DNA of 64,000 bases from Actinomycetaceae bacterium (GTDB lineage Bacteria > Actinomycetota > Actinomycetes > Actinomycetales > Actinomycetaceae): positions 2,871 through 66,870 of the forward strand of contig JAUMZK010000010.1 of assembly GCA_030528145.1 (NCBI GenBank), read 5' to 3'. The position numbers were made by a program, and so were the translations under genes. Below the pieces are notes generated by a model. It did not search any database and was not told where the DNA came from. It was given only the letters and a program-made list of their open reading frames with translations. Shown here one piece after another: positions 40,536-63,934 of this stretch. How positions within the stretch are numbered: the stretch's first letter is position 1; each line of letters begins with the position of its first letter.

Positions 40536-42155
40536 ATGCGACACAATTTTTCGCCTGCGAGGCGCCGCCACGCAAACTGCCTGAGTCACGCGCACCGCGA
40601 CTCTTCCGCCACTGAACCCACCGCCCTCGGAAAATCCGCGTATCTGCACCAAAGCCCGCAAGCCAGCGCGGCAACACTACTGTGGAATCGTTCCGCTAGG
40701 GTTCCTAATTCAGCGAATATGGGTAAGCTTGATTTATGCCGTCTTTTCCCCAGTTCCCCTCCCGGCGAATGCGCAGCCAGCCCTGTGCACGCGCGCGGAT
40801 CGAACAGCGGAAACGAAAACCCGGACCTAAACCCGAAAAGCGAAGCATTTGCGCAGGTAACGGCGGTAGGCTCGGCGGGCGTATCGGATACGAGTCACCA
40901 ATTTACAGCCACCGAAAAACACCAACTGCAAGGCGGCAAACACTTCGCCGCCCACCCGCACCACAACCACGACCATCACGGCTTCCGCGCCTCTAACGAC
41001 CGGCACGCGAGTTCACGACAGGACACCCGCCAAACTGTCCAAACTGCCCAGACTGCGCAAACAATGCAAAACTCTCAAGCGCGCTACCCCCAAAGTTTTC
41101 GCGTCGAACGCACCGCTGCCCCTCGGGTTCACAGCCACCGCCGCGACCGCCGCCCTCACCCAGCTTGGGAATGGTTGGCGGCATGCAGGAGCGACTGGCA
41201 GGCTCGCCCGCGCCGCGTCGGACGCCACGTATTCGTAGACCCGCGCACCGGACAGCGTTTTCGCCTGCGCATGCGTTGGGGGCGCGTAGTTGCCACCGCA
41301 ATCGCACTGCTGTTGGTGTTCGTGGTTACCGGAGTGGGCATGCACGCACTCGTTTCTGGGATGGCAGAATCCGCGCAAGCCAGTGGGACTACCGGGGTGT
41401 CGTCCTCGGGAAAAACCAACAAAACGGGCAGTCGGGTTAGTAAGATGCGCACAGGAAACGCGCGCAAAGGGGGTTCCAAGTCCGAGGGCGCCACGAAAGC
41501 CGCAGTGAAAATGCCAAGTACCAGCCCAGTTCCCTCAGCTCCTTTGGTGCCAAAGCCAGAATTAGATGGGGAAACCGCACCATCAGGCGGATTGGATGGC
41601 GCAGTCCCGGAGGCGGGAGACGGCAAGTTCGCTCCGGTGTCTGGGGAATTGTCCGGCAGGGAGGGTGCGCAGACGGTTCGCTTCGCGGTGGCAGTCGAGG
41701 GCGGTTTGCCCATTGATGCGCGCACTGCGGCAAACACTTTCTACCAGATTTTGAACGATCCGCGCGGGTGGAACCAGGGCGGAAAGATTCGCTTTGCACG
41801 CACCTCGAAGAACCCGGACGTGACCGTGGTGTTGGGGTCGCCGACTCTGATTGGGAAACTGTGTGCGCCCCTGGACACGCAGGGGGATTTGAATTGCCGC
41901 AACGGCAAGATTGTGGCGATCAACGCGAAACGGTGGTTGGGAGGCGCGGATTTGTGGCGGCAGGCCGGAAAAACTAACGACCAGTACCGTATTTATGTGG
42001 CTTCGCACGAAGTCGGACATTTCCTAGGGTACGGGCACCTTTACGAGTGCGGTCCGGGACGCCTGGCACCCACCATGATGCAGCAGACCGGCGGCATGGT
42101 CAACCAGTGCATCCCGAACGGCTGGCCAACACTGTCCACCATCGAACAAAAGTAA
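40536..42155 (+). CDS. DUF3152-family membrane-anchored zinc-metalloprotease-like protein (HExxH intact)
   Basis: The C-terminal domain reads FYQILNDPRGWNQGGKIRFAR ... YRIYVASHEVGHFLGYGH. One TM segment is present (VVATAIALLLVFVVTGVGM). The start codon is uncertain because the N-terminus is long and disordered. Confidence 0.65.
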   Translation: MRHNFSPARRRHANCLSHAHRDSSATEPTALGKSAYLHQSPQASAATLLWNRSARVPNSANMGKLDLCRLFPSSPPGECAASPVHARGSNSGNENPDLNPKSEAFAQVTAVGSAGVSDTSHQFTATEKHQLQGGKHFAAHPHHNHDHHGFRASNDRHASSRQDTRQTVQTAQTAQTMQNSQARYPQSFRVERTAAPRVHSHRRDRRPHPAWEWLAACRSDWQARPRRVGRHVFVDPRTGQRFRLRMRWGRVVATAIALLLVFVVTGVGMHALVSGMAESAQASGTTGVSSSGKTNKTGSRVSKMRTGNARKGGSKSEGATKAAVKMPSTSPVPSAPLVPKPELDGETAPSGGLDGAVPEAGDGKFAPVSGELSGREGAQTVRFAVAVEGGLPIDARTAANTFYQILNDPRGWNQGGKIRFARTSKNPDVTVVLGSPTLIGKLCAPLDTQGDLNCRNGKIVAINAKRWLGGADLWRQAGKTNDQYRIYVASHEVGHFLGYGHLYECGPGRLAPTMMQQTGGMVNQCIPNGWPTLSTIEQK

Positions 42156-42180: not shown

Positions 42181-42263
42181 CCCGTGAGCCGGACTTTCAG
42201 TGCGACTCAATGCCCGCCGAACCGCCCGCACTCCGCCCCAAACCCCAAACGCAACCCCAAAAC
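42181..42263 (+). repeat. Copy B of the approximately 83-bp intergenic repeat
   Basis: The sequence is cccgtgagccggactttcagtgcgactcaatgcccgccgaaccgcccgcactccgccccaaaccccaaacgcaaccccaaaac. It differs from copy C at 3 positions by my alignment and is followed by a C8A8 homopolymer pair (42280-42295). Confidence 0.85.
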
Positions 42264-42353
42264 TGCGACCCGACCACCGCCCCCCCCAAAAAAAACACAG
42301 CCGAAGAAGCCGTAGCGGCGGTGCGGCGGTCGCCCTATTTCCTCTGTTTGCAG

Positions 42354-42806
42354 CTACTTTTTTGGGGTGGCTTGCTGGTCGCCCTCGGCATAATTGACAC
42401 TGTCGATGCTTTCAACTTGGTGCAAAAAGTTGCCAAACTTGTCCTCGTCCAGAGCCGGACTCAGCTCAACCGAAACGGTAGTGTCAGACAAGCCTTGAAC
42501 GGCTTCAATACTGGCAGTGGATTCTTTTGCCGCTTTTTCGAGGGCGGTGCGAACCGACTCTGGCAGCGTGTTCAAAGTGACGTTGTCGGCGCTTTTCAAA
42601 GCTTTCACAGCTTCCGACTTCTCCTCGAAGCCGACGATTGCTACTTTATTCATGTTATGTCCGTGGTTAGGTGCTGGTTTCTTTTTGGCACTGTCAGAAA
42701 TACTGGGCGAGGGCGCCGTGGAACCTTGGTGTGTCAGAGCGCCGCACCCACCAAGTAACGCTAAAGATACCGATACTGCTGACAAAACTAATAACTTACG
42801 AGGCAT
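42354..42806 (-). CDS. Small lipoprotein of unknown function (possible free-standing subtilase-propeptide/I9-like domain)
   Basis: MPRKLLVLSAVSVSLALLGGCG is a lipobox, and GGAGGA precedes the ATG at 42806. It lies directly downstream of, and co-directional with, the S8 protease. Confidence 0.6.
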   Translation of the reverse strand: MPRKLLVLSAVSVSLALLGGCGALTHQGSTAPSPSISDSAKKKPAPNHGHNMNKVAIVGFEEKSEAVKALKSADNVTLNTLPESVRTALEKAAKESTASIEAVQGLSDTTVSVELSPALDEDKFGNFLHQVESIDSVNYAEGDQQATPKK

Positions 42807-42948
42807 GGTTTCCTCCAACCTTGTTTTTGTGTCAGTATCTGCTGCACTGACTTTTCAATTTATGCAATTTTCGGGTGTGGTGGCAACTGTCCCATTACCA
42901 CCACACCCCTACAAGGAGAGCTTTTCTGCGGTAAAAACAGTTCCGAGT

Positions 42949-51806: not shown

Positions 51807-52724
51807 CTATGCTTCTACTTTCACTGTGGTTTCGGCGTCTTCTTCGCGGCGGCGTTTGGCGAGGACGATGCCCGCGCTGATGGCGGCCGCTGACAGTAAC
51901 ACCAGCCCGGATATGGCGACGCCGGTTTTGCTGAGTCGTTTTGGTGCCGCAGGTTTAGGTTTGGGTTTAGGTGTCGGCTTTTGCATGTGCGCGGGCGGTT
52001 CGGCGGGCAGAGGCTTAGCGCTTATTTCGGCTTGGTATACCCACATTTTCCGCGCATTCTCGTCACCTAGTTTCACGCTTGCGCCTACTGGCAGGGTGAT
52101 GAGGAATGGTTGGATGCGCGTGTGTTTGTGTGCCGGGTCGGCGGGTGGTTCGTCGCTCACTAAATACAAGCCGACCGGCAGCCCACTGAATTTGGCGGTA
52201 CCGGTGGTGTCAGTGGTTGCGGTGGCGGCGTCCTCGAGCCCTAACTTGGTGGCGTCTTCTACCGTCATTTTGGCTATTTCGCCCCAGTTAGCGGTTTTCA
52301 GGTCGATTTGGCGAACTTTTTGTACTTTGATGGTGGCGCCGGCGGGGCTGCCGTTGGGTTGGTCTCCGGGTGCCGGATCGTCGTACGGGTTGCCCTCCGT
52401 TTTAGTTACTGCGAGGGTGGATGTGCGCGCGGGGTCAATGTCGGCGGGGTTCAGCCCAGATGTGTCACCGGTGACCACGTGTGTGGTTGGTGCCGCGTTG
52501 TTTTCTGTGGCGTTAGCGTTTATGTTGTTTATTCCGAGGGCGCCCACTGCGACTACCGCTAGTGCCCCTATTGTGGCTGCTACTTTCCGCCACCGGCATG
52601 GCATGTTGGGGTTGTTTTCAGTGTGGGCGCTGCCTTTGTCAGCGGCGCAAATGTCGCCCTGGGCAACTGTCACTCTAGCTGCCTGGGTGGGTTCGTTCCA
52701 CATAGTTTGGTGCGTATGTTTCAC
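51807..52724 (-). CDS. Minor/base pilin-like surface protein with a variant sorting signal LSKTG
   Basis: It has a signal-like segment (KVAATIGALAVVAVGALG) and pilin-type CnaB-like motifs (TGTAKFSGLPVGLYLVSDEPP, IQPFLITLPV). The C-terminus reads KRLSKTG, followed by a hydrophobic segment and KRRRE. The GTG start overlaps the sortase stop. Confidence 0.7.
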   Translation of the reverse strand: MKHTHQTMWNEPTQAARVTVAQGDICAADKGSAHTENNPNMPCRWRKVAATIGALAVVAVGALGINNINANATENNAAPTTHVVTGDTSGLNPADIDPARTSTLAVTKTEGNPYDDPAPGDQPNGSPAGATIKVQKVRQIDLKTANWGEIAKMTVEDATKLGLEDAATATTDTTGTAKFSGLPVGLYLVSDEPPADPAHKHTRIQPFLITLPVGASVKLGDENARKMWVYQAEISAKPLPAEPPAHMQKPTPKPKPKPAAPKRLSKTGVAISGLVLLSAAAISAGIVLAKRRREEDAETTVKVEA

Positions 52725-53755
52725 TGGTTCCTCCTGTAACTAGGTGAACTGTTTGGTGGGATGGTTTGGTTGGTCTCGTAATTGGATGGCGGTGGGGGCG
52801 GGTATTGGCGTGATTGCCTCGAGCCCAAATCAGGCTGCGTGCTCACGTCGCCGGGTGCGTCTATGCCGGATTTGTTGTTTTCGTCTTTTGTGTGGTGTTT
52901 CCACAGGAAGTAGAGCCACCATCCGAGCGCCCCTAAGGCAAGCGCAGCTACCGCGATGATCGCTATCATCCACCACGACCACGCCAAGGGGGTGCGGTGG
53001 TCGAATACGGGGGTTTTGTCCATGGGGACGCGTTCTCCGGTGATCAGGAGGCGGTGCGAGTTGATGCCGTAGGGCGTGCAGGTAATTACGGTGACGAGGT
53101 CGCGCCCTTTTTGTACTTTTAGGGAGCTGACTTGGTCGGGTTTTACGACTTTGATGTCGAAGACTTTATATTTTAGTTTGCGTCCGGCGACTTGAATGTA
53201 GATGGGGTCGCCGTGTTTGATGTCGGTCAGGTGGTCTAGCAGGCTGGCGGTGGATAGTCCGGTGTGTCCGGTCAGCACCGCGTGGGTGGATTTTCCACCT
53301 ACTGGCAGGGAGGACCCGTACAGGTGCCCAATCCCCTTTTCCAACGTTTTCATGGAGGTGCCGTGATAGATGGGTAAATCCACTTTCGCTGCGGGAATCA
53401 CCAGGCGCCCCATCGCTTCGGTGAGGTTTAGTTGCCCGAGGTAACGCTGGTAGGGGTTGTTGTCTTTGGCTACGCGCGCTAACCAGGGGTCTAGAATGGG
53501 GCTGGTGGGTCCGTGACGGTTGTATTCGTCGGCGGCAGCGAGTTGGTCGCGTACCCCTTTGGGGTCTAATTGTTTTTCTGTTTTGGAGTATTTGTAGGCA
53601 ATGTATTGTTGGCGGGCGTTGTTAAGCTGGGTGGCTACTACGGGGTAGAGCAGAACAGTTATGCCGGCAAGCGCCAGGATGACAGGGATTAGTGTAGAAA
53701 AACGTGACCCTTTCCGAGGGCGCCCGCTCGCGTTACTGGTGTGGGTTGCGTTCAC
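52721..53755 (-). CDS. Class C (pilus-specific) sortase
   Basis: It has an N-terminal TM segment, the catalytic His (HAVLTGHTGL), the TLxTC-type motif VTVITCTPYG, a downstream Arg and a C-terminal TM anchor. It is flanked by pilin genes. Confidence 0.9.
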   Translation of the reverse strand: MNATHTSNASGRPRKGSRFSTLIPVILALAGITVLLYPVVATQLNNARQQYIAYKYSKTEKQLDPKGVRDQLAAADEYNRHGPTSPILDPWLARVAKDNNPYQRYLGQLNLTEAMGRLVIPAAKVDLPIYHGTSMKTLEKGIGHLYGSSLPVGGKSTHAVLTGHTGLSTASLLDHLTDIKHGDPIYIQVAGRKLKYKVFDIKVVKPDQVSSLKVQKGRDLVTVITCTPYGINSHRLLITGERVPMDKTPVFDHRTPLAWSWWMIAIIAVAALALGALGWWLYFLWKHHTKDENNKSGIDAPGDVSTQPDLGSRQSRQYPPPPPSNYETNQTIPPNSSPSYRRNQ

Positions 53756-53873: not shown

Positions 53874-55289
53874 CTAGGCCTTTTTGCGGGCGTAGTAGTA
53901 GGAGGTGCCGAGCAGACCACCGCCAATAAGGATGAACAGCAGGATTCCGGCGCCACCGGTAAGCGGTAGCTTGGCGCGAATGTCGGAGCTGTTGTAGTTT
54001 TCGATGGTGATTTCGACGGTATTGTCTGTTGCGCCTTTGATGGTGGCATCGTCGAATGTGAATTTCACTGGGGAAGTCAGCTTTTCGTAGCCTGCGGGAG
54101 CCTTGGTTTCTACGACACACATTTGCGTGGTAGTGGCGCGCATGGGACCGATCAGCGTGGCAGCGGCGAAGGTGTCTTTACCGTCAATACTTATAGCATC
54201 ACCGGTAGTGCCTTTGTCCGCACATTGGAAGATCTTGAATTCGGCTCCAGTCAGTTCTTTAGTGGAGCCTTTTTCTATGTTCTTGATCTTGAGCTTACCG
54301 AACACTGTGGTGGTGGGTTTATCTGGGGGCGTCACAATGGTGGTGTCGTCGGGGCGCTTGTCGGTAGCCCAGGTGGCGGAGGCTTCGTTTACGACGCCTT
54401 TAGCGACATCGACGTCGCCTACTTTCAGCGACAGTTTCACAACTAGTTGTTTGCCGGCTTTGGCAGTGAGTTTCTTCTGACCTTCACTGGTGAAGCTGAT
54501 AGTTACCTTATTTGCTACATTGTTTTGAACGCTGAAGTCGGTGTCCTTAGCAAATTTTTGATCATCGGCAGTCACTGAAATAATCTTCGGATCCTCGTTT
54601 ACCAAACCGGAAGAAATCTTATCTGTAACCTCGAACTTGGTGAAGTTTTCGTTCTTTTCCAGGTTGCGAATAGGTACCTTGATTTCAAAGTCCATGTAGC
54701 TGCCCTTTGCAATTGGTTTACCTTGGGTAGTTACGTCGGTTTTGGTGACTGCACCGGCGCTGGCATTCTTGGGGTACACGTGAATGTTCTTCAAGAATGC
54801 AGCTGGGTTGTCCGGATCGGTCATCGGTACGAACACCAGAGCTTGTTTCATGGGGCTGAATCCTGCAGGGGCAGAGATTTGTGTCAGCTTGTAAAGCCCA
54901 GCCTTTAGACCGGTAAATTCGGCTTTTCCATCCTTAACGGTGGTTTTTTCTATTTTAGTAAACTTAGAATCATCACTGAAATTATCCGCAGTGGCACTGC
55001 GCGCAGCTTCATATCCGTCAGTGGTGGTGATGTCGTAGTTACCGCGCATCAGCTTGAAGACTGCGCCCACCTGCGGCGTACCAGTGACGGCGGAATTTTC
55101 TTTACCGTTTGCCTGCTTAGCGTTGGCTTCGTCATCTATTTGCAGCGCATGCACAGTAATGCTGTTATCGGTTGCGTCGGGGTTGATGACAGGAGCCGCC
55201 GTGGCACTAGCGGCTATTACGCCTGCACCGACCAGTCCGAAGGCGGCTGCCAAAGCCATGCCTTTTTTGATTATTGATGTAACTTTCAT
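53874..55289 (-). CDS. Major (shaft) pilin, SpaA/FimA-type, LPXTG-anchored
   Basis: It has a signal peptide, the pilin motif HVYPKN, the E-box VVETKAPAGYEKL, and the sorting signal LPLTGG followed by a hydrophobic segment and ARKKA. Confidence 0.9.
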   Translation of the reverse strand: MKVTSIIKKGMALAAAFGLVGAGVIAASATAAPVINPDATDNSITVHALQIDDEANAKQANGKENSAVTGTPQVGAVFKLMRGNYDITTTDGYEAARSATADNFSDDSKFTKIEKTTVKDGKAEFTGLKAGLYKLTQISAPAGFSPMKQALVFVPMTDPDNPAAFLKNIHVYPKNASAGAVTKTDVTTQGKPIAKGSYMDFEIKVPIRNLEKNENFTKFEVTDKISSGLVNEDPKIISVTADDQKFAKDTDFSVQNNVANKVTISFTSEGQKKLTAKAGKQLVVKLSLKVGDVDVAKGVVNEASATWATDKRPDDTTIVTPPDKPTTTVFGKLKIKNIEKGSTKELTGAEFKIFQCADKGTTGDAISIDGKDTFAAATLIGPMRATTTQMCVVETKAPAGYEKLTSPVKFTFDDATIKGATDNTVEITIENYNSSDIRAKLPLTGGAGILLFILIGGGLLGTSYYYARKKA

Positions 55290-61300: not shown

Positions 61301-62517
61301 GCCAGAACTTGCACGTTGGAATTTGTGGAATCTTGCGGCTGCGGTTCCCCAGTTAGTGCTTGCAGCCACTTCTTGCGATAGGAATTACCGTAGTGTACCC
61401 AGTCATTCATGCCCATGGCGCGAATGTCTGCACCCATTTCACGGAGCATTTTCGCTACGCTCAAAGCGCCAGCTCGTCCCGGATTCTTATAGAGGTCAGA
61501 ACTATTCCACCCATAATAATGCCACGTTTCACTGTCCTCGCCGCGATCAACAAACGTGCCTTCTACGTCATGGTCTGATACCCATTTGTCCTGCTTCCAG
61601 TCAGTAATGGGATGCAGATGCCAGTGCGGGTCAGCGACCGTCATCAAAATGATCTTAGAATATAAAGGTCGTGGTTTAAAGTGTTTTAACCCTGTATCGT
61701 CTGGGTTGTCTGCTAGATATTCCTGTCTTTGTTTTTCTTTGTACAAGTACATGTCGCGGTATAAAACACCGAGACCCCATTCCGTATTTCCACCGAAAGT
61801 AGTGTGCAGCCCTTTGCCGTCATTGCTAGCATCAAGTGACCATAGCTTATCTACTACTTTTTGGAAACCGGCAGGATCTGTTAGCGACGTAGGTCCAAGC
61901 GAAGGCGTGTTGTTGTTACTTGATTGCTCTTCTTTCTTCTTGGAGTATTGGTACACGCCTACACGCAAAGGAGTACCTTTGAGACGGTCTATGACTGAAA
62001 CCATCGCAGCATTGGCATCCCAGTTGCGACAGTACCCTTCACTGTTTAAAACCTTATTTTTAGGAAGTCCATTATAGTGTTTGCAATCGGCTGCTTTAGA
62101 ACCTTTGGTACCCGGAACTAACCCACCCATTGTCTGGTAGTTGTATTTGGTCCCAAATTCAAATACTAGGGCTACCGACCCAGCATTCTGACTTACGTTA
62201 GGACGATCAGGGTCAGCAGGCCAGGGGTCTTCAGATGATCCGATAATCGGGTTTTCGCTAGAGCGTTCCTCTGCTGTAGCGGTAGCTGACGCGCGCGCAC
62301 GGAAAACAGCGGGCTGCGGCACCCGTGTTGCCGTATTCCGGTTGGTAAGTATTGATGCGGGAGCGGGCGTATTTCCACCTCTAGGAGACTTAGCGGGGGT
62401 GCTGGGTGCTGAATTCGCCGACGCGTCTAAAGTTACCGCATGGAAAAGAGTAACTACCATGCTTAGTAGTGCCAATAAAGCGATAGACCTCGCACGTCCC
62501 CTACTAGTCAACGTCAA
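55357..62517 (-). CDS. Giant (2386-aa) pilus tip adhesin-like surface protein with many Cys-pair modules and a variant sorting signal LPSSG
   Basis: It has a signal peptide (SIALLALLSMVVTLFHAVTLDASA) and an approximately 500-aa N-terminal globular region. At least 11 tandem modules follow, each bracketed by a conserved Cys...Cys pair. It ends with a CnaB-like domain and the C-terminus LPSSGG, then a hydrophobic segment and SRRL. It is the first gene of the pilin-sortase operon. The start (TTG at 62517 or 62511) is uncertain. Confidence 0.85.
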   Translation of the reverse strand: MTLTSRGRARSIALLALLSMVVTLFHAVTLDASANSAPSTPAKSPRGGNTPAPASILTNRNTATRVPQPAVFRARASATATAEERSSENPIIGSSEDPWPADPDRPNVSQNAGSVALVFEFGTKYNYQTMGGLVPGTKGSKAADCKHYNGLPKNKVLNSEGYCRNWDANAAMVSVIDRLKGTPLRVGVYQYSKKKEEQSSNNNTPSLGPTSLTDPAGFQKVVDKLWSLDASNDGKGLHTTFGGNTEWGLGVLYRDMYLYKEKQRQEYLADNPDDTGLKHFKPRPLYSKIILMTVADPHWHLHPITDWKQDKWVSDHDVEGTFVDRGEDSETWHYYGWNSSDLYKNPGRAGALSVAKMLREMGADIRAMGMNDWVHYGNSYRKKWLQALTGEPQPQDSTNSNVQVLALPNAGDSNPGSYWSKNGTYNRGTGETQMGFFANTIERWLLEDTHLSITSDLVDQDYRYVKPNARHRITLSPTSSAPLPPISYRTGEDGRMTARLKDLGLTDGVKVQFPSKTGAFLHTRFKNKVARCVGYKRSVGSYHYDPDKIKEAFWPSEVTTGPDGSAAFTISREQILTYGSIKCSLYSRPLQETQIEKHVEISDDSEVIRPYVAHSKFKLIYSCKDPLDGNKVLVPDTTTKPMEVLRIENEVSFPAIDLGKLPVGAQCSIKEDITNPKLQTLNGGEYDVDGVLWDRLMTRTTTFNGQNWSAKTTDNPTDTFTRAATQSTTGVVTLPPITAPAGQISSLRSSTTFAAKRGEIYVDARFAKAKVPDGKSPNWNDYDENLTKPGTVVPVFYNCRYMPDPTHPPEKLGFDLIGGLPPAIGSGTVSAVVGKKVRLGTWPVGTHCAITSNTPINDANFEADKTFKPFSIPGFELHDEFTTDMCASTHWQKPPASGDYSVCNPYIWLNNTDKRTIVLTQIVSRQSGTVIVDKTLVGDAAKAGANKPIPMRLTCDSLFSQEAKVVPGVPYSFTGVPAQTKCELTETGNPEGLDAGIVVSRPATQQVGPIMDTATDTRVSSVTTLTFKRAPVKFTHETVKSNYTGDLEEVKKLSKTVTAICTEPGNISPITITKTFTGDIGEAHAIILKNDKGLDFAVGTRCKLSTLVDGAAKISKTLIVSTPDVEVVVPESGTTAAITTTAATAAAGSITINMHNQTSLTRKVLRDLIPGKYTLKMRCGTGDEANWIDYSDQLKFYTAGATKPTNERQIIADGGEAKLENTDLPANSQCKVTIKVGNIAELDRTTNFFSDGTNDTDGNQSSDAVNPTFTFSAPGADGARQLTINNAYEVATTQFKLTTAANLFILEKAKANVGAAEFAAGNNPTITSQKLLGERVPAAYRKAFFAGNTAKSEVSATLGCAYKGGKGEGATVKFTVPIRRGPTPLESDTIELPVGWDCKLAVDAADLQIPGSELSGVQFTGGTFATQRDVTVNSQLPLEYRLKLASFNLKKKVGGEGVSRIPPQWQFPINISCTLNGKAIPVPQPRTPLPWTKKADANPPLADPDSEPAKQYIDAVNAPWEMVDNLTVNTLRFEQGEEHPIDRLPAGASCTLAENYDRATDEGASLNHYWEINDGYRARGGEKLLSSCRDSDRYCSRPYLGKIPAGASPAERFKEAAIAIHLPTDKPMTKSLWKETDNKAGQPNATVPQYLPENFFGTAVTWNNYEYQKTAVKVSLKASGTANGERFAEGQSFKARLYCKPPKLTSNDGSNLEEIQKLNAAAVLTGSIDFTVKNGAAEGESNIAIPTDYSCVIAPASFSHGDASPVYALEAVIDPAKGDIPVAVEGNFVTAGIFTQDEVIRNEDPKRLPWYDTSLQKRTDASAPEDAIFAFKVPGAYTKVKDRITQKYDALLNFKLNLQLDRPQARVLIKQNISKADGGSASKNVGDVLGIKTYPVHYECADHYLMVPDPKTPTGDVNASRVPLTYSGDLTVAKDTTEPGVLLPNLPESVTCKFTQKAPLGAGGADPFAPWNKAILTGWNEAIVKVKTGDIWDETRAYPTSGLDPSKLDVSDVQLNRGDTLSEGDAKFKRTTLTFTNTYSVPLSSYEVGNYVNGKRAAEAFILGSDTTFTYTCKLPSGLPGFDNWVTSGKVKAEEGQITQMSAMPKGSTCTITGKLPERKNATKVVKVKSSRITLDLSMFGSAPRARAAGGPDNGLGRPDFTNAKLLTSREGIAAGAPLTLEVSDTNPMRAFLHEVWSNAAKMRIQKVNADGNVVPNATFSVYEKIVPGGGDTPTNYRKVTDPGFALTAESGIHGSFLGELPPGSYYLAVENAGTTGTERFPFGWKFTVSAADANNTNDNQDTVVEVTDEAKHSGLIALYNPQGQNLSGGTDNIVANEGSIWTIRVADITTGVLPSSGGYLPWVLLIGLILISAAGISMWQASRRL

Positions 62518-62586
62518 CTCCTCTGGGGTTACTTTGCTTGCTCCTTGATTTGCCTCTCACACTGCACAAACGGCAAAACCAATACC

Positions 62587-62614
62587 AGTCTATTCCCCCC
62601 CCCCGAAATCTCAA
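62587..62614 (-). promoter_or_regulatory. Candidate promoter of the tip-adhesin/pilus operon, with a G10 tract inside the -35/-10 spacer
   Basis: The minus strand reads TTGAGA tttcGGGGGGGGGGaa TAGACT. The -35 is at 62609-62614, the 16-nt spacer containing G10 (plus-strand C10) is at 62595-62604, and the -10 is at 62587-62592. It lies about 70 nt upstream of the start codon. Confidence 0.45.
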
Positions 62615-63181
62615 GGCATTTTCGGAAATTTTGCAACATTTTTTCACGAAAGGAAATCTTTCCGCTCAGTAGGCGCTTTCCTCATCCCATTTCCCCAACC
62701 TGGCAGCAAAGACGAAGTAGTCTTATGCGGGACGCTGACATGATACGCACGGGAATAAGACTGCGACCATGCGTGGGCGCATCAGGCGCACAAGCCAACA
62801 ATTGCAGAGCAGGGACACTGTTAAGGGTAGTGGTTTCGATAACGTGTGGGTGATTAGGCGGTGAACAGGCGCGCCGAAAGCGCGACTCATAATCATTACG
62901 GGCAGAAATACAGAATCCCCAAATACTCGCCTTCTGTGCGTGAGCACAGACCCTTTCAGCAATTGCAAATCAATTCGTCACCCCTATCCCACCCTCATCC
63001 TCTCTCAACATCACAGAAAGTGGAACGAGGACTGTAAATCCTGGAAAATAAGGCGCCCAATTACTGAACATAACCTTCACGCGGAAATAACTTAGTAAAG
63101 TTTTTAAAAACGCTTACCATTTGCCGAATGTTTCACATTGATAATTGCGTTTAGATGCAGTTTTAATTGGCTTTCTAGTTT

Positions 63182-63199
63182 TGATTATCATTATCATTC
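63182..63199. promoter_or_regulatory. Fur-family (Fur/Zur-like) box upstream of the His-rich protein gene
   Basis: The reverse complement contains GATAATGATAATCA, 14 contiguous nt identical to the classical Fur-box consensus GATAATGATAATCATTATC. Extra TGAT(A/T)AT half-sites lie at about 63139 and 63233. Confidence 0.4.
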
Positions 63200-63329
63200 G
63201 AGGGAAATAGTATTTTTGTGCAGTTTCAAGGAAATGATTATCGTTTACACTAAACTTGTTTGCCTCACGAAGAATTGTGTAATTTTTGAAAATTTAATGA
63301 CAATTCAGATTTTTTATATTACGCTTTGA

Positions 63330-63346
63330 GTGTCAGTTAATGACAC
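63330..63346. promoter_or_regulatory. Perfect palindrome GTGTCA-N5-TGACAC just upstream of the RBS of the His-rich gene (candidate operator)
   Basis: The sequence is GTGTCAgttaaTGACAC. It lies about 10 nt before the AGGGGG RBS and follows a TATATT -10-like hexamer. Confidence 0.3.
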
Positions 63347-63364
63347 AAATTTTTAGGGGGAAAC

Positions 63365-63658
63365 ATGGAACACAAAGTTCATGAGAATCATACTCACCAG
63401 CATGGCGAGAGGTGCGGACACGCCGCCGTGCCACACGGGGACCACATGGATTATTTGCATGACGGGGAATTGCACCATCCGCACCAGGGTCACTACGACT
63501 GCCAAGAATTCACTGGGCACCAGGTCGCGGAGAACCACGGGGACCACAAGCACGGTAAGGGTTGCGGACACGAAGCCATCCAACACGGCGACCACATGGA
63601 TTATTTGCATGGGCAGCACCGCCATGCCGCCCATGGGGACCATTACGACGAGCACTAG
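63365..63658 (+). CDS. Small histidine-rich metal-binding protein with an internal duplication
   Basis: The 97-aa product has 26 His and 3 Cys. The two repeats are CGHAAVPHGDHMDYLHDGELHHPHQGHYD and CGHEAIQHGDHMDYLHGQHRHAAHGDHYD. The RBS is strong (AGGGGGAAAC ATG). Confidence 0.7.
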   Translation: MEHKVHENHTHQHGERCGHAAVPHGDHMDYLHDGELHHPHQGHYDCQEFTGHQVAENHGDHKHGKGCGHEAIQHGDHMDYLHGQHRHAAHGDHYDEH

Positions 63659-63922: not shown

Positions 63923-63934
63923 CCCCCCCCCCCC
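63923..63934. repeat. C12 homopolymer tract
   Basis: Twelve consecutive C are present. It is intergenic and close to the right edge of the window, so the downstream context is not visible. Confidence 0.9.

Follow-up and report, generated by a model that had tools for sequence, protein, structure and literature searches.

In Neisseria meningitidis, the -35/-10 spacer of the porA promoter contains a poly-G run, and the gain or loss of one G changes the level of transcript (PMC3899988), which agrees with the initial annotation of the present locus, where porA was cited among the precedents for a homopolymer in a promoter spacer. In Bordetella pertussis, small insertions and deletions in a poly-C run in the promoter regions of fim2 and fim3 switch between high and low levels of fimbriae (PMC2562373). 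Among actinobacteria, the pilus loci bbr_0113 and bbr_1889 of Bifidobacterium breve UCC2003 carry a G-tract that divides the signal peptide from the remainder of the first gene, and changes in its length act by frameshift; the pilus tracts of this species are G10-G12, replication slippage has been demonstrated, and unpublished G-tracts in promoter spacers are mentioned (PMC9187656). The variable tracts of Cutibacterium (Propionibacterium) acnes are almost exclusively G/C and lie mostly upstream of genes; one of them, HPT_37, is inferred to occupy a -35/-10 spacer and is associated with a difference in expression, and tract variation in this species followed clades rather than active switching (PMC4746626). 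The Pil1 pilus operon of Streptococcus gallolyticus is switched by slippage of GCAGA pentanucleotide repeats in a translated leader peptide, together with a terminator (PMC3894217).

The locus considered here is part of a 64,000-nucleotide stretch of DNA from a member of the Actinomycetaceae (the window), in which a coding-strand G10 run precedes a pilus operon. It resembles porA in having a G homopolymer in the putative -35/-10 spacer of a surface-protein gene. However, porA is a single porin gene of a Gram-negative bacterium, with a mapped transcription start and measured expression, whereas the window holds a four-gene sortase-pilus operon of an actinobacterium, known from sequence alone, and its relatives suggest that the tract is transcribed. 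The locus shares with fim2/fim3 a homopolymer in the presumed promoter region of fimbrial or pilus genes, but the fim pilus is of the unrelated chaperone-usher type, and an activator site is known in fim alone, where the C-stretch sets the distance between the BvgA site and the -10 element. The B. breve loci are also actinobacterial sortase-pilus operons with a giant adhesin gene first and a coding-strand G run at the 5' end; their tract is intragenic, whereas the one described here lies 78-84 nt 5' of the adhesin start, with all frames closed. As in P. acnes, a G/C tract is found upstream of an actinobacterial gene and, as with HPT_37, in a candidate promoter spacer, but the P. acnes tracts are short (5-7 C for HPT_37), vary by clade and do not involve pilus operons. 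Like the Pil1 repeat, the tract precedes a sortase-pilus operon and is placed in its leader, outside the structural genes; unlike in Pil1, the ORF that spans it has no Shine-Dalgarno sequence and there is no terminator. The kind of device is already known and has not yet been described in this family: the literature searched contains no report of such a tract in Varibaculum or other Actinomycetaceae, and nothing on pilus control in Varibaculum and its relatives. The leader hairpins of Varibaculum, described below, are the more unusual lead.

The G10 run and the operon downstream

Judged by their predicted products, the four minus-strand genes downstream of the run (adhesin, pilin, sortase and pilin) are a sortase-dependent pilus operon (Table 1), which upholds the initial annotation. 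The products belong to a surface-exposed class, comprising an LPXTG tip adhesin, a major pilin, a sortase and a second pilin. The adhesin opens with a signal peptide, contains a DUF5979 domain and carries an LPSSG sorting signal and membrane anchor at its C-terminus, and the start of the second pilin gene overlaps the stop codon of the sortase gene. A consensus scan found no promoter-like site on the operon's own strand inside the operon, so that all four genes would depend on a single promoter upstream. The 850 bp upstream are intergenic and separate the operon from a divergent histidine-rich ORF (63365-63658, + strand). Of two TTG codons at the head of the adhesin gene, the one at 62511 is the likelier start compared with 62517, because it has the Shine-Dalgarno sequence GAGGAG (62523-62518) 6 nt ahead of it and because the Logan gene call gives the same protein of 2384 aa.

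Table 1. Positions of the tract, its flanking hexamers and the pilus genes in the window
Feature	Position	Strand	Basis
G10 homopolymer (C10 on the + strand), candidate slippage tract	62595..62604	-	
-35-like hexamer TTGAGA, 5/6 matches to TTGACA	62609..62614	-	sequence and promoter scan
-10-like hexamer TAGACT (TAnnnT), 4/6 matches to TATAAT, begins 2 nt past the tract	62587..62592	-	
Putative 5' untranslated leader, if transcription starts ~7 nt past the -10; holds the Shine-Dalgarno sequence; secondary structure not significant (z +0.69)	62512..62580	-	sequence
Tip adhesin gene, 2384 aa	55357..62511	-	Logan gene call, domain search
Major pilin gene, SpaH/EbpB type, LPLTG	53874..55289	-	GramPos_pilinD1, SpaA, pilinBB
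Class C (pilus-specific) sortase gene	52721..53755	-	62-66% identity to Varibaculum sortases
Second (minor or base) pilin gene, LSKTG	51807..52724	-	weak GramPos_pilinD1 match

With the sortase as query, a scan of genome contigs returned five Varibaculum loci at 62-66% identity, and the N-terminal 400 aa of the adhesin are 47-53% identical to their Varibaculum orthologues. On the strength of these two ranges of protein identity, the organism of the window is placed as a diverged Varibaculum-related actinomycete. The major pilin reaches 38-40% identity to its closest relatives, of which the named ones are from Varibaculum. Exact-protein look-ups of the major pilin, a protein with a Tyr_Deacylase domain, the adhesin and the sortase led to sample SRR24915845 alone, and no relative closer to the organism was found in the collections searched. 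A scan of genome contigs with the adhesin N-terminus alone returned no relative, and protein searches with this N-terminus and with a five-sequence alignment returned two fragments each and nothing more. A metagenome scan, together with the exact-protein look-ups, added 17 further loci that cover the region upstream of the adhesin gene; a look-up of P0013 (V. prostatecancerukia) gave no record.

On the minus strand, TTGAGA is followed by the 16-nt spacer tttcGGGGGGGGGGaa (tttc-G10-aa) and then by TAGACT, the end of which lies 70 nt from the TTG at 62517 and 76 nt from that at 62511. A consensus promoter scan, run independently, arrived at the same site, TTGAGA-16-TAGACT, with 9/12 consensus matches, so that the tract and its flanking hexamers are as first described. 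The uninterrupted run of 10 nt exceeds the ~8 nt taken as sufficient for slippage. Over ~670 nt upstream of the start on the coding strand this is the sole site that passes the scan criteria, and a relaxed scan of the same region gave weaker sites with 8/12 matches. When G10 was placed in random flanks with the local base composition, a hexamer pair passing the criteria arose around the coding-strand run by chance in 0.65% of 200,000 simulated trials. A separate assembly of the same locus (Logan contig L001, from SRR24915845) also has G10, so that both assemblies of this organism agree in length (n = 2, with one sample in the collections).

The leader in the window gave no significant hairpin on folding (z +1.63), and its predicted fold is unchanged from G6 to G14. 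A C/U-rich partner for the G run was sought in cis in this leader and none was found. Rfam gave no match, whether the intergenic region was searched in E-value mode or the entire window in gathering mode.

Long G/C runs are rare in the window, as the initial annotation had noted. Those of at least 8 nt are just C8 at 42280, C10 at 62595 and C12 at 63923, and there are none of 7 or 9 nt in the 64 kb. For runs of at least 10 nt, ~0.27 would be expected under independent bases (the window is 56% G+C) against the two observed, both of which fall within 1.4 kb upstream of the pilus operon.

Orthologous leaders in Varibaculum

The orthologous operons of Varibaculum have a G run of G7-G12 at the equivalent position of the leader, 31-40 nt before a GTG start. 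In the V. cambriense type, with flanks AAAACTCC-Gn-CGTAGTTTTT, the run is G11 in L006, G10 in L008, L010, L012 and L015, G9 in L016, and G7 in L028 and L029. In the V. timonense type, with flanks CACTTTGTT-Gn-ATTACTCATATG, it is G12 in L005 and L023, G11 in L021, G10 in L022, G9 in L011, L018, L024 and L025, and G8 in L009. V. vaginae (L007) has G7, and a third clade (L003, L013 and L014) has a fixed, interrupted GGGAGGGG.

Some of these loci differ in the tract and nowhere else nearby. L021 (G11) and L023 (G12) have zero mismatches over 200 nt upstream and 3000 nt downstream, and the same is true of L022 (G10) and L024 (G9); the members of each pair come from different samples, and run length is their sole difference in 3.2 kb. 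Over 900 nt downstream, L006 (G11) does not differ from L010 (G10). The other homopolymers in the matched stretches, all of 6 nt, are invariant between the paired contigs. The Varibaculum lengths are those of consensus assemblies, two of them (L009 and L011) at ~3x coverage, in which homopolymer miscalls are possible; length differences of 2-4 nt in identical backgrounds are nevertheless hard to explain by miscalls. Comparison of these loci makes hypermutability of the tract in the relatives well supported, and it lends strong indirect support to the idea of a slipped-strand contingency locus.

The window, the cambriense type and the timonense type, and so at least three diverged lineages, have an uninterrupted run of 9-12 nt ahead of this operon, and long G/C runs are otherwise near-absent from the 64-kb window and from five 20-kb stretches of Varibaculum sequence. 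The window, Varibaculum and B. breve all carry the run as G on the coding strand. The exception is L017, a more distant adhesin homologue (42% identity) with C10 ~100 nt upstream; C7, A9, G8, C10 and C10 are clustered there within ~350 nt (2610-2935), with C10-GCGGG occurring twice. The orthologous operon of Mobiluncus mulieris has no tract, so the feature is not general to the Actinomycetaceae.

The adhesin alleles themselves show further variation. Between the start codon and a point ~60 nt upstream of the tract, the leader of L008 is identical to those of other cambriense-type loci, whereas its first 900 nt downstream (1283-2182, compared with 1465-2364 of L006) are only 72.6% identical to them; this points to a conserved control region with mosaic or recombining adhesin alleles behind it. 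In L003 and L018 the adhesin gene is split by frameshifts; these were considered as a second switch and rejected, as they do not lie at homopolymers.

Canonical promoters were found by the scan upstream of the run in L012 (TTGACG-18-TAAGAT) and L005 (TTGTTA-18-TATAAT), and similar ones were read by eye in L003 and L007. In addition, the run is predicted to form the 3' arm of a strong hairpin in the leader RNA (z -3.5 and -3.9), pairing with a C/U-rich stretch such as CGCCCCUCCC or UCCCUCUCUC; the hairpins lie at 2350-2391 in L012, 1452-1491 in L005 and about 1459-1492 in L003. The 5' arm is as long as the commonest tracts, and a perfect stem is predicted for the cambriense type at G9 and for the timonense type at G10. 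The L012 hairpin, in which 14 pairs precede GCGTAGTTTT, is terminator-like, and in the V. cambriense type the predicted stem loses the closing pairs beside the U run from G11 on. In L003, the interrupted GGGAGGGG pairs with CCCUUCUU, a U-A pair preserving the pairing, and lies 8 nt before an in-frame ATG. The Varibaculum hairpin contains many G-U pairs, which are sensible in RNA only. With canonical promoters upstream and a hairpin that pairs the run, the run is most probably transcribed in these species. Either one hypermutable run is put to different uses in the sister lineages, or the hexamers in the window are not its promoter.

The two main Varibaculum types also differ in what surrounds the run. 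That of the V. timonense type (G8-G12) is the most variable and has no flanking -35/-10. The V. cambriense type reads TTAAAA-ctcc-Gn-cg-TAGTTT and repeats the arithmetic of the window, with 4 nt, Gn, 2 nt and TAGnnT. In V. cambriense UMB0796, a gene for an IS30-family transposase (HTH_38 and rve domains; L006, 158-1440) lies upstream of the tract, and the upstream junction sequence is common to two metagenome contigs (L010, 1-74; L015, about 2220-2372). In all three loci the native sequence begins only 18-19 nt before the tract, and an IS30-family element replaces everything beyond. With this replacement, these loci have lost the canonical promoter upstream as well as the 5' hairpin arm, and the hexamers that span the tract are the only native promoter candidates left. 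An iso-IS30 element created the promoter of the spaCBA pilus genes of Lactobacillus rhamnosus GG, which the element upstream of the Varibaculum tract recalls (PMC3744422).

What the tract may do

The G10 run is a genuine phase-variation candidate and very probably a contingency tract tied to the pilus operon. That it has some regulatory role seems a good deal more probable than not, and it is probably a mutational dimmer or an on/off switch for the pilus. How it would act is less certain. The best single reading for this window is that G10 is a slippage-prone tract in the 16-nt spacer of the operon's sole credible promoter, to which a probability of about 0.45 may be given. We infer that transcription starts just past TAGACT, that tract length varies in the organism of the window and that length alters transcription. 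If single G residues were gained or lost in replication, the spacer would measure 15 nt at G9, 16 nt at G10, 17 nt at G11 and 18 nt at G12. A spacer of 17 nt is the sigma-70 optimum, and the porA spacer likewise measures 15, 16 and 17 nt at G9, G10 and G11, the same arithmetic as here. A change in the spacer would alter the fit of the RNA polymerase holoenzyme to the two hexamers, with G11 as the high state and G10 below the optimum, at a low or intermediate level, and clonal descendants would come to differ heritably yet reversibly in pilus output.

The initial annotation had assigned the run to the spacer of the operon's candidate promoter, and the evidence for this part of its claim is divided. 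The hexamers bracket the run at the best site within ~670 nt, and no other site there qualifies; the low chance of such a bracket (0.0065) favours promoter function. The cambriense-type flanks, by repeating the same arithmetic, lend the promoter assignment some further weight, as may the Varibaculum contigs that differ in run length alone and the loci that bear IS30. On the other side, the runs of the nearest relatives appear to lie downstream of canonical promoters, in RNA that is predicted to pair with them; the timonense-type tracts vary without any flanking hexamers, and G7 in the cambriense type would leave a spacer of 13 nt. Both assemblies of the organism have G10, which also counts against a varying spacer. 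The flanks of the window and of the cambriense type are identical at 10/20 bases, so that the hexamers in the window could be inherited leader sequence rather than a promoter. Since the window has neither a hairpin nor a comparable promoter further upstream, placement in a promoter spacer nevertheless stays the best reading here.

It is possible, if on balance doubtful, that the tract instead lies within a transcribed 5' leader and acts after initiation, its length tuning attenuation, stability or translation. Transcription would then start further upstream, for example near TATCAT at 62745-62740, and the run could be a hairpin arm, an attenuator, an SD-like ribosome site or the target of a C/U-rich RNA. 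The G-repeat of Helicobacter pylori tlpB and RepG are a case in which a G run is targeted by such an RNA. This is the arrangement to which Varibaculum points, with its promoters upstream of the tract (L012 and L005), a strong hairpin with the tract as 3' arm (terminator-like in L012), a 5' arm that fits the commonest lengths, and the L003 run just ahead of an in-frame ATG. A timonense-type tract that is hypervariable without flanking hexamers, and a coding-strand run that is G and not C in the window, Varibaculum and B. breve (L017 excepted), would also fit it. In the window, however, there is no C/U-rich partner in cis, no significant structure (z +1.63) and no change of fold from G6 to G14; Rfam is empty, and no comparable promoter-like site occurs upstream within ~670 nt.

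Long G/C runs vary by slippage whatever their function. It may therefore be that the length of this one simply drifts as a neutral, hypermutable homopolymer, with coincidental hexamers and no meaningful effect on pilus expression, although this is unlikely. The absence of a tract from the Mobiluncus mulieris operon, the interrupted and fixed GGGAGGGG of one Varibaculum clade and the G10 of both assemblies of the window species would suit such drift, as would the variation in P. acnes, judged consistent with slow accumulation over time (PMC4746626). Against it are the uninterrupted runs of 9-12 nt kept ahead of this operon by no fewer than three diverged lineages, with C10 in L017, the near-absence of such runs elsewhere (the 64-kb window and 5 x 20 kb of Varibaculum) and the chance of 0.0065 for the bracketing hexamers.

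A lineage-wide device in the leader RNA, rather than a promoter spacer, appears similarly improbable: slippage would tune an attenuator through the register of the stem, and the copy in the window would be either a derived form or the same tract re-used as a promoter spacer. A terminator tuned by slippage needs no leader peptide and, to our knowledge, has not been described for pili.

Attenuation through a leader peptide, in which slippage would shift the stop of a short ORF and so control a downstream terminator, is an established mechanism for a sortase pilus operon, S. gallolyticus Pil1 (PMC3894217). An ORF from ATG 62639 to TAA 62530 does span the tract in the window (36 aa at G10), and its stop moves with tract length, to just past the tract at G11 and into the adhesin start region at G9 or G12. 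However, no Shine-Dalgarno sequence precedes this ATG, no terminator-like site occurs on the minus strand at 62517-62640 and the leader folds no better than shuffled sequence, and the mechanism was rejected on the lack of these two elements. There is also no convincing promoter upstream of the ORF, and the cambriense-type leaders have no start codon upstream of the tract, all of which makes it very improbable. A frameshift switch, documented for G-tracts in bifidobacterial sortase-pilus clusters (PMC9187656), in which start and signal peptide lie upstream and the tract sets the adhesin frame, can be dismissed: two adhesin-frame stops lie between tract and start, all three frames are closed from G7 to G14, and the signal peptide, which aligns with those of the Varibaculum orthologues, starts downstream of the tract at 62511 behind a canonical Shine-Dalgarno sequence.

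Implications and neighbouring sequence

Varibaculum and its relatives are little-studied actinobacteria, and the related contigs include assemblies of human-gut metagenomes. If a G run does vary pilus output in these bacteria, it would provide bet-hedging between adhesive cells and non-adhesive, less immunogenic ones, as in Neisseria, Bordetella and Bifidobacterium. Control of sortase pili by G-tracts would then extend past Bifidobacterium and would not be bound to intragenic frameshifts. Tract variation from G7 to G12, the sole difference between the matched contigs, offers a cheap experimental handle, as genomes of V. cambriense and V. timonense are deposited. An assembly carries only one tract length, and annotation pipelines therefore miss heterogeneity.

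The genomic context of the operon in the window differs from that in Varibaculum, where the whole pilus operon lies between tuf, encoding EF-Tu, and rpsJ (1610-15553 in L021; 1652-14085 in L028). rpsJ is the start of the S10 ribosomal-protein operon, and the position between tuf and rpsJ is normally conserved and highly expressed.

The histidine-rich ORF across the intergenic region encodes 97 aa and contains an internal 150-nt duplication (region 63143-63658). Two TGATTATC(A/G)TT boxes precede it (63182-63192 and 63235-63245), which we take to resemble half-sites of Fur-family operators. The Logan gene call at this place is an antisense ORF of 128 aa instead. Neither ORF has a match in Pfam, the histidine-rich ORF has none in NCBIfam, and an exact-protein look-up of its product returned no record. 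The small intergenic ORFs at 62545-62853 (+ strand) and 62723-62968 (- strand) likewise have no NCBIfam match.

A second tract, C12 on the + strand and G12 on the minus strand (63923-63934), lies 265 nt past the histidine-rich ORF and 66 nt from the end of the window. Contig L001 starts inside this tract with G13, and one SNP follows 10 nt further; the length of the tract thus differs between the two assemblies, and there is a contig break in it. No gene within the window can be assigned to it. At 42280-42295, C8 is followed directly by A8, between a 539-aa ORF that ends at 42155 (+ strand) and a 154-aa ORF (42354-42818, - strand); a 182-aa ORF of the + strand (42210-42758) also overlaps it. 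If the flanking ORFs are real genes, this C8A8 lies upstream of no gene. Just 3' of the last pilus-operon gene of an uncultured Varibaculum (L003, 11782-11796), G9 is followed by A6, a sequence similar in form to the C8A8 of the window.
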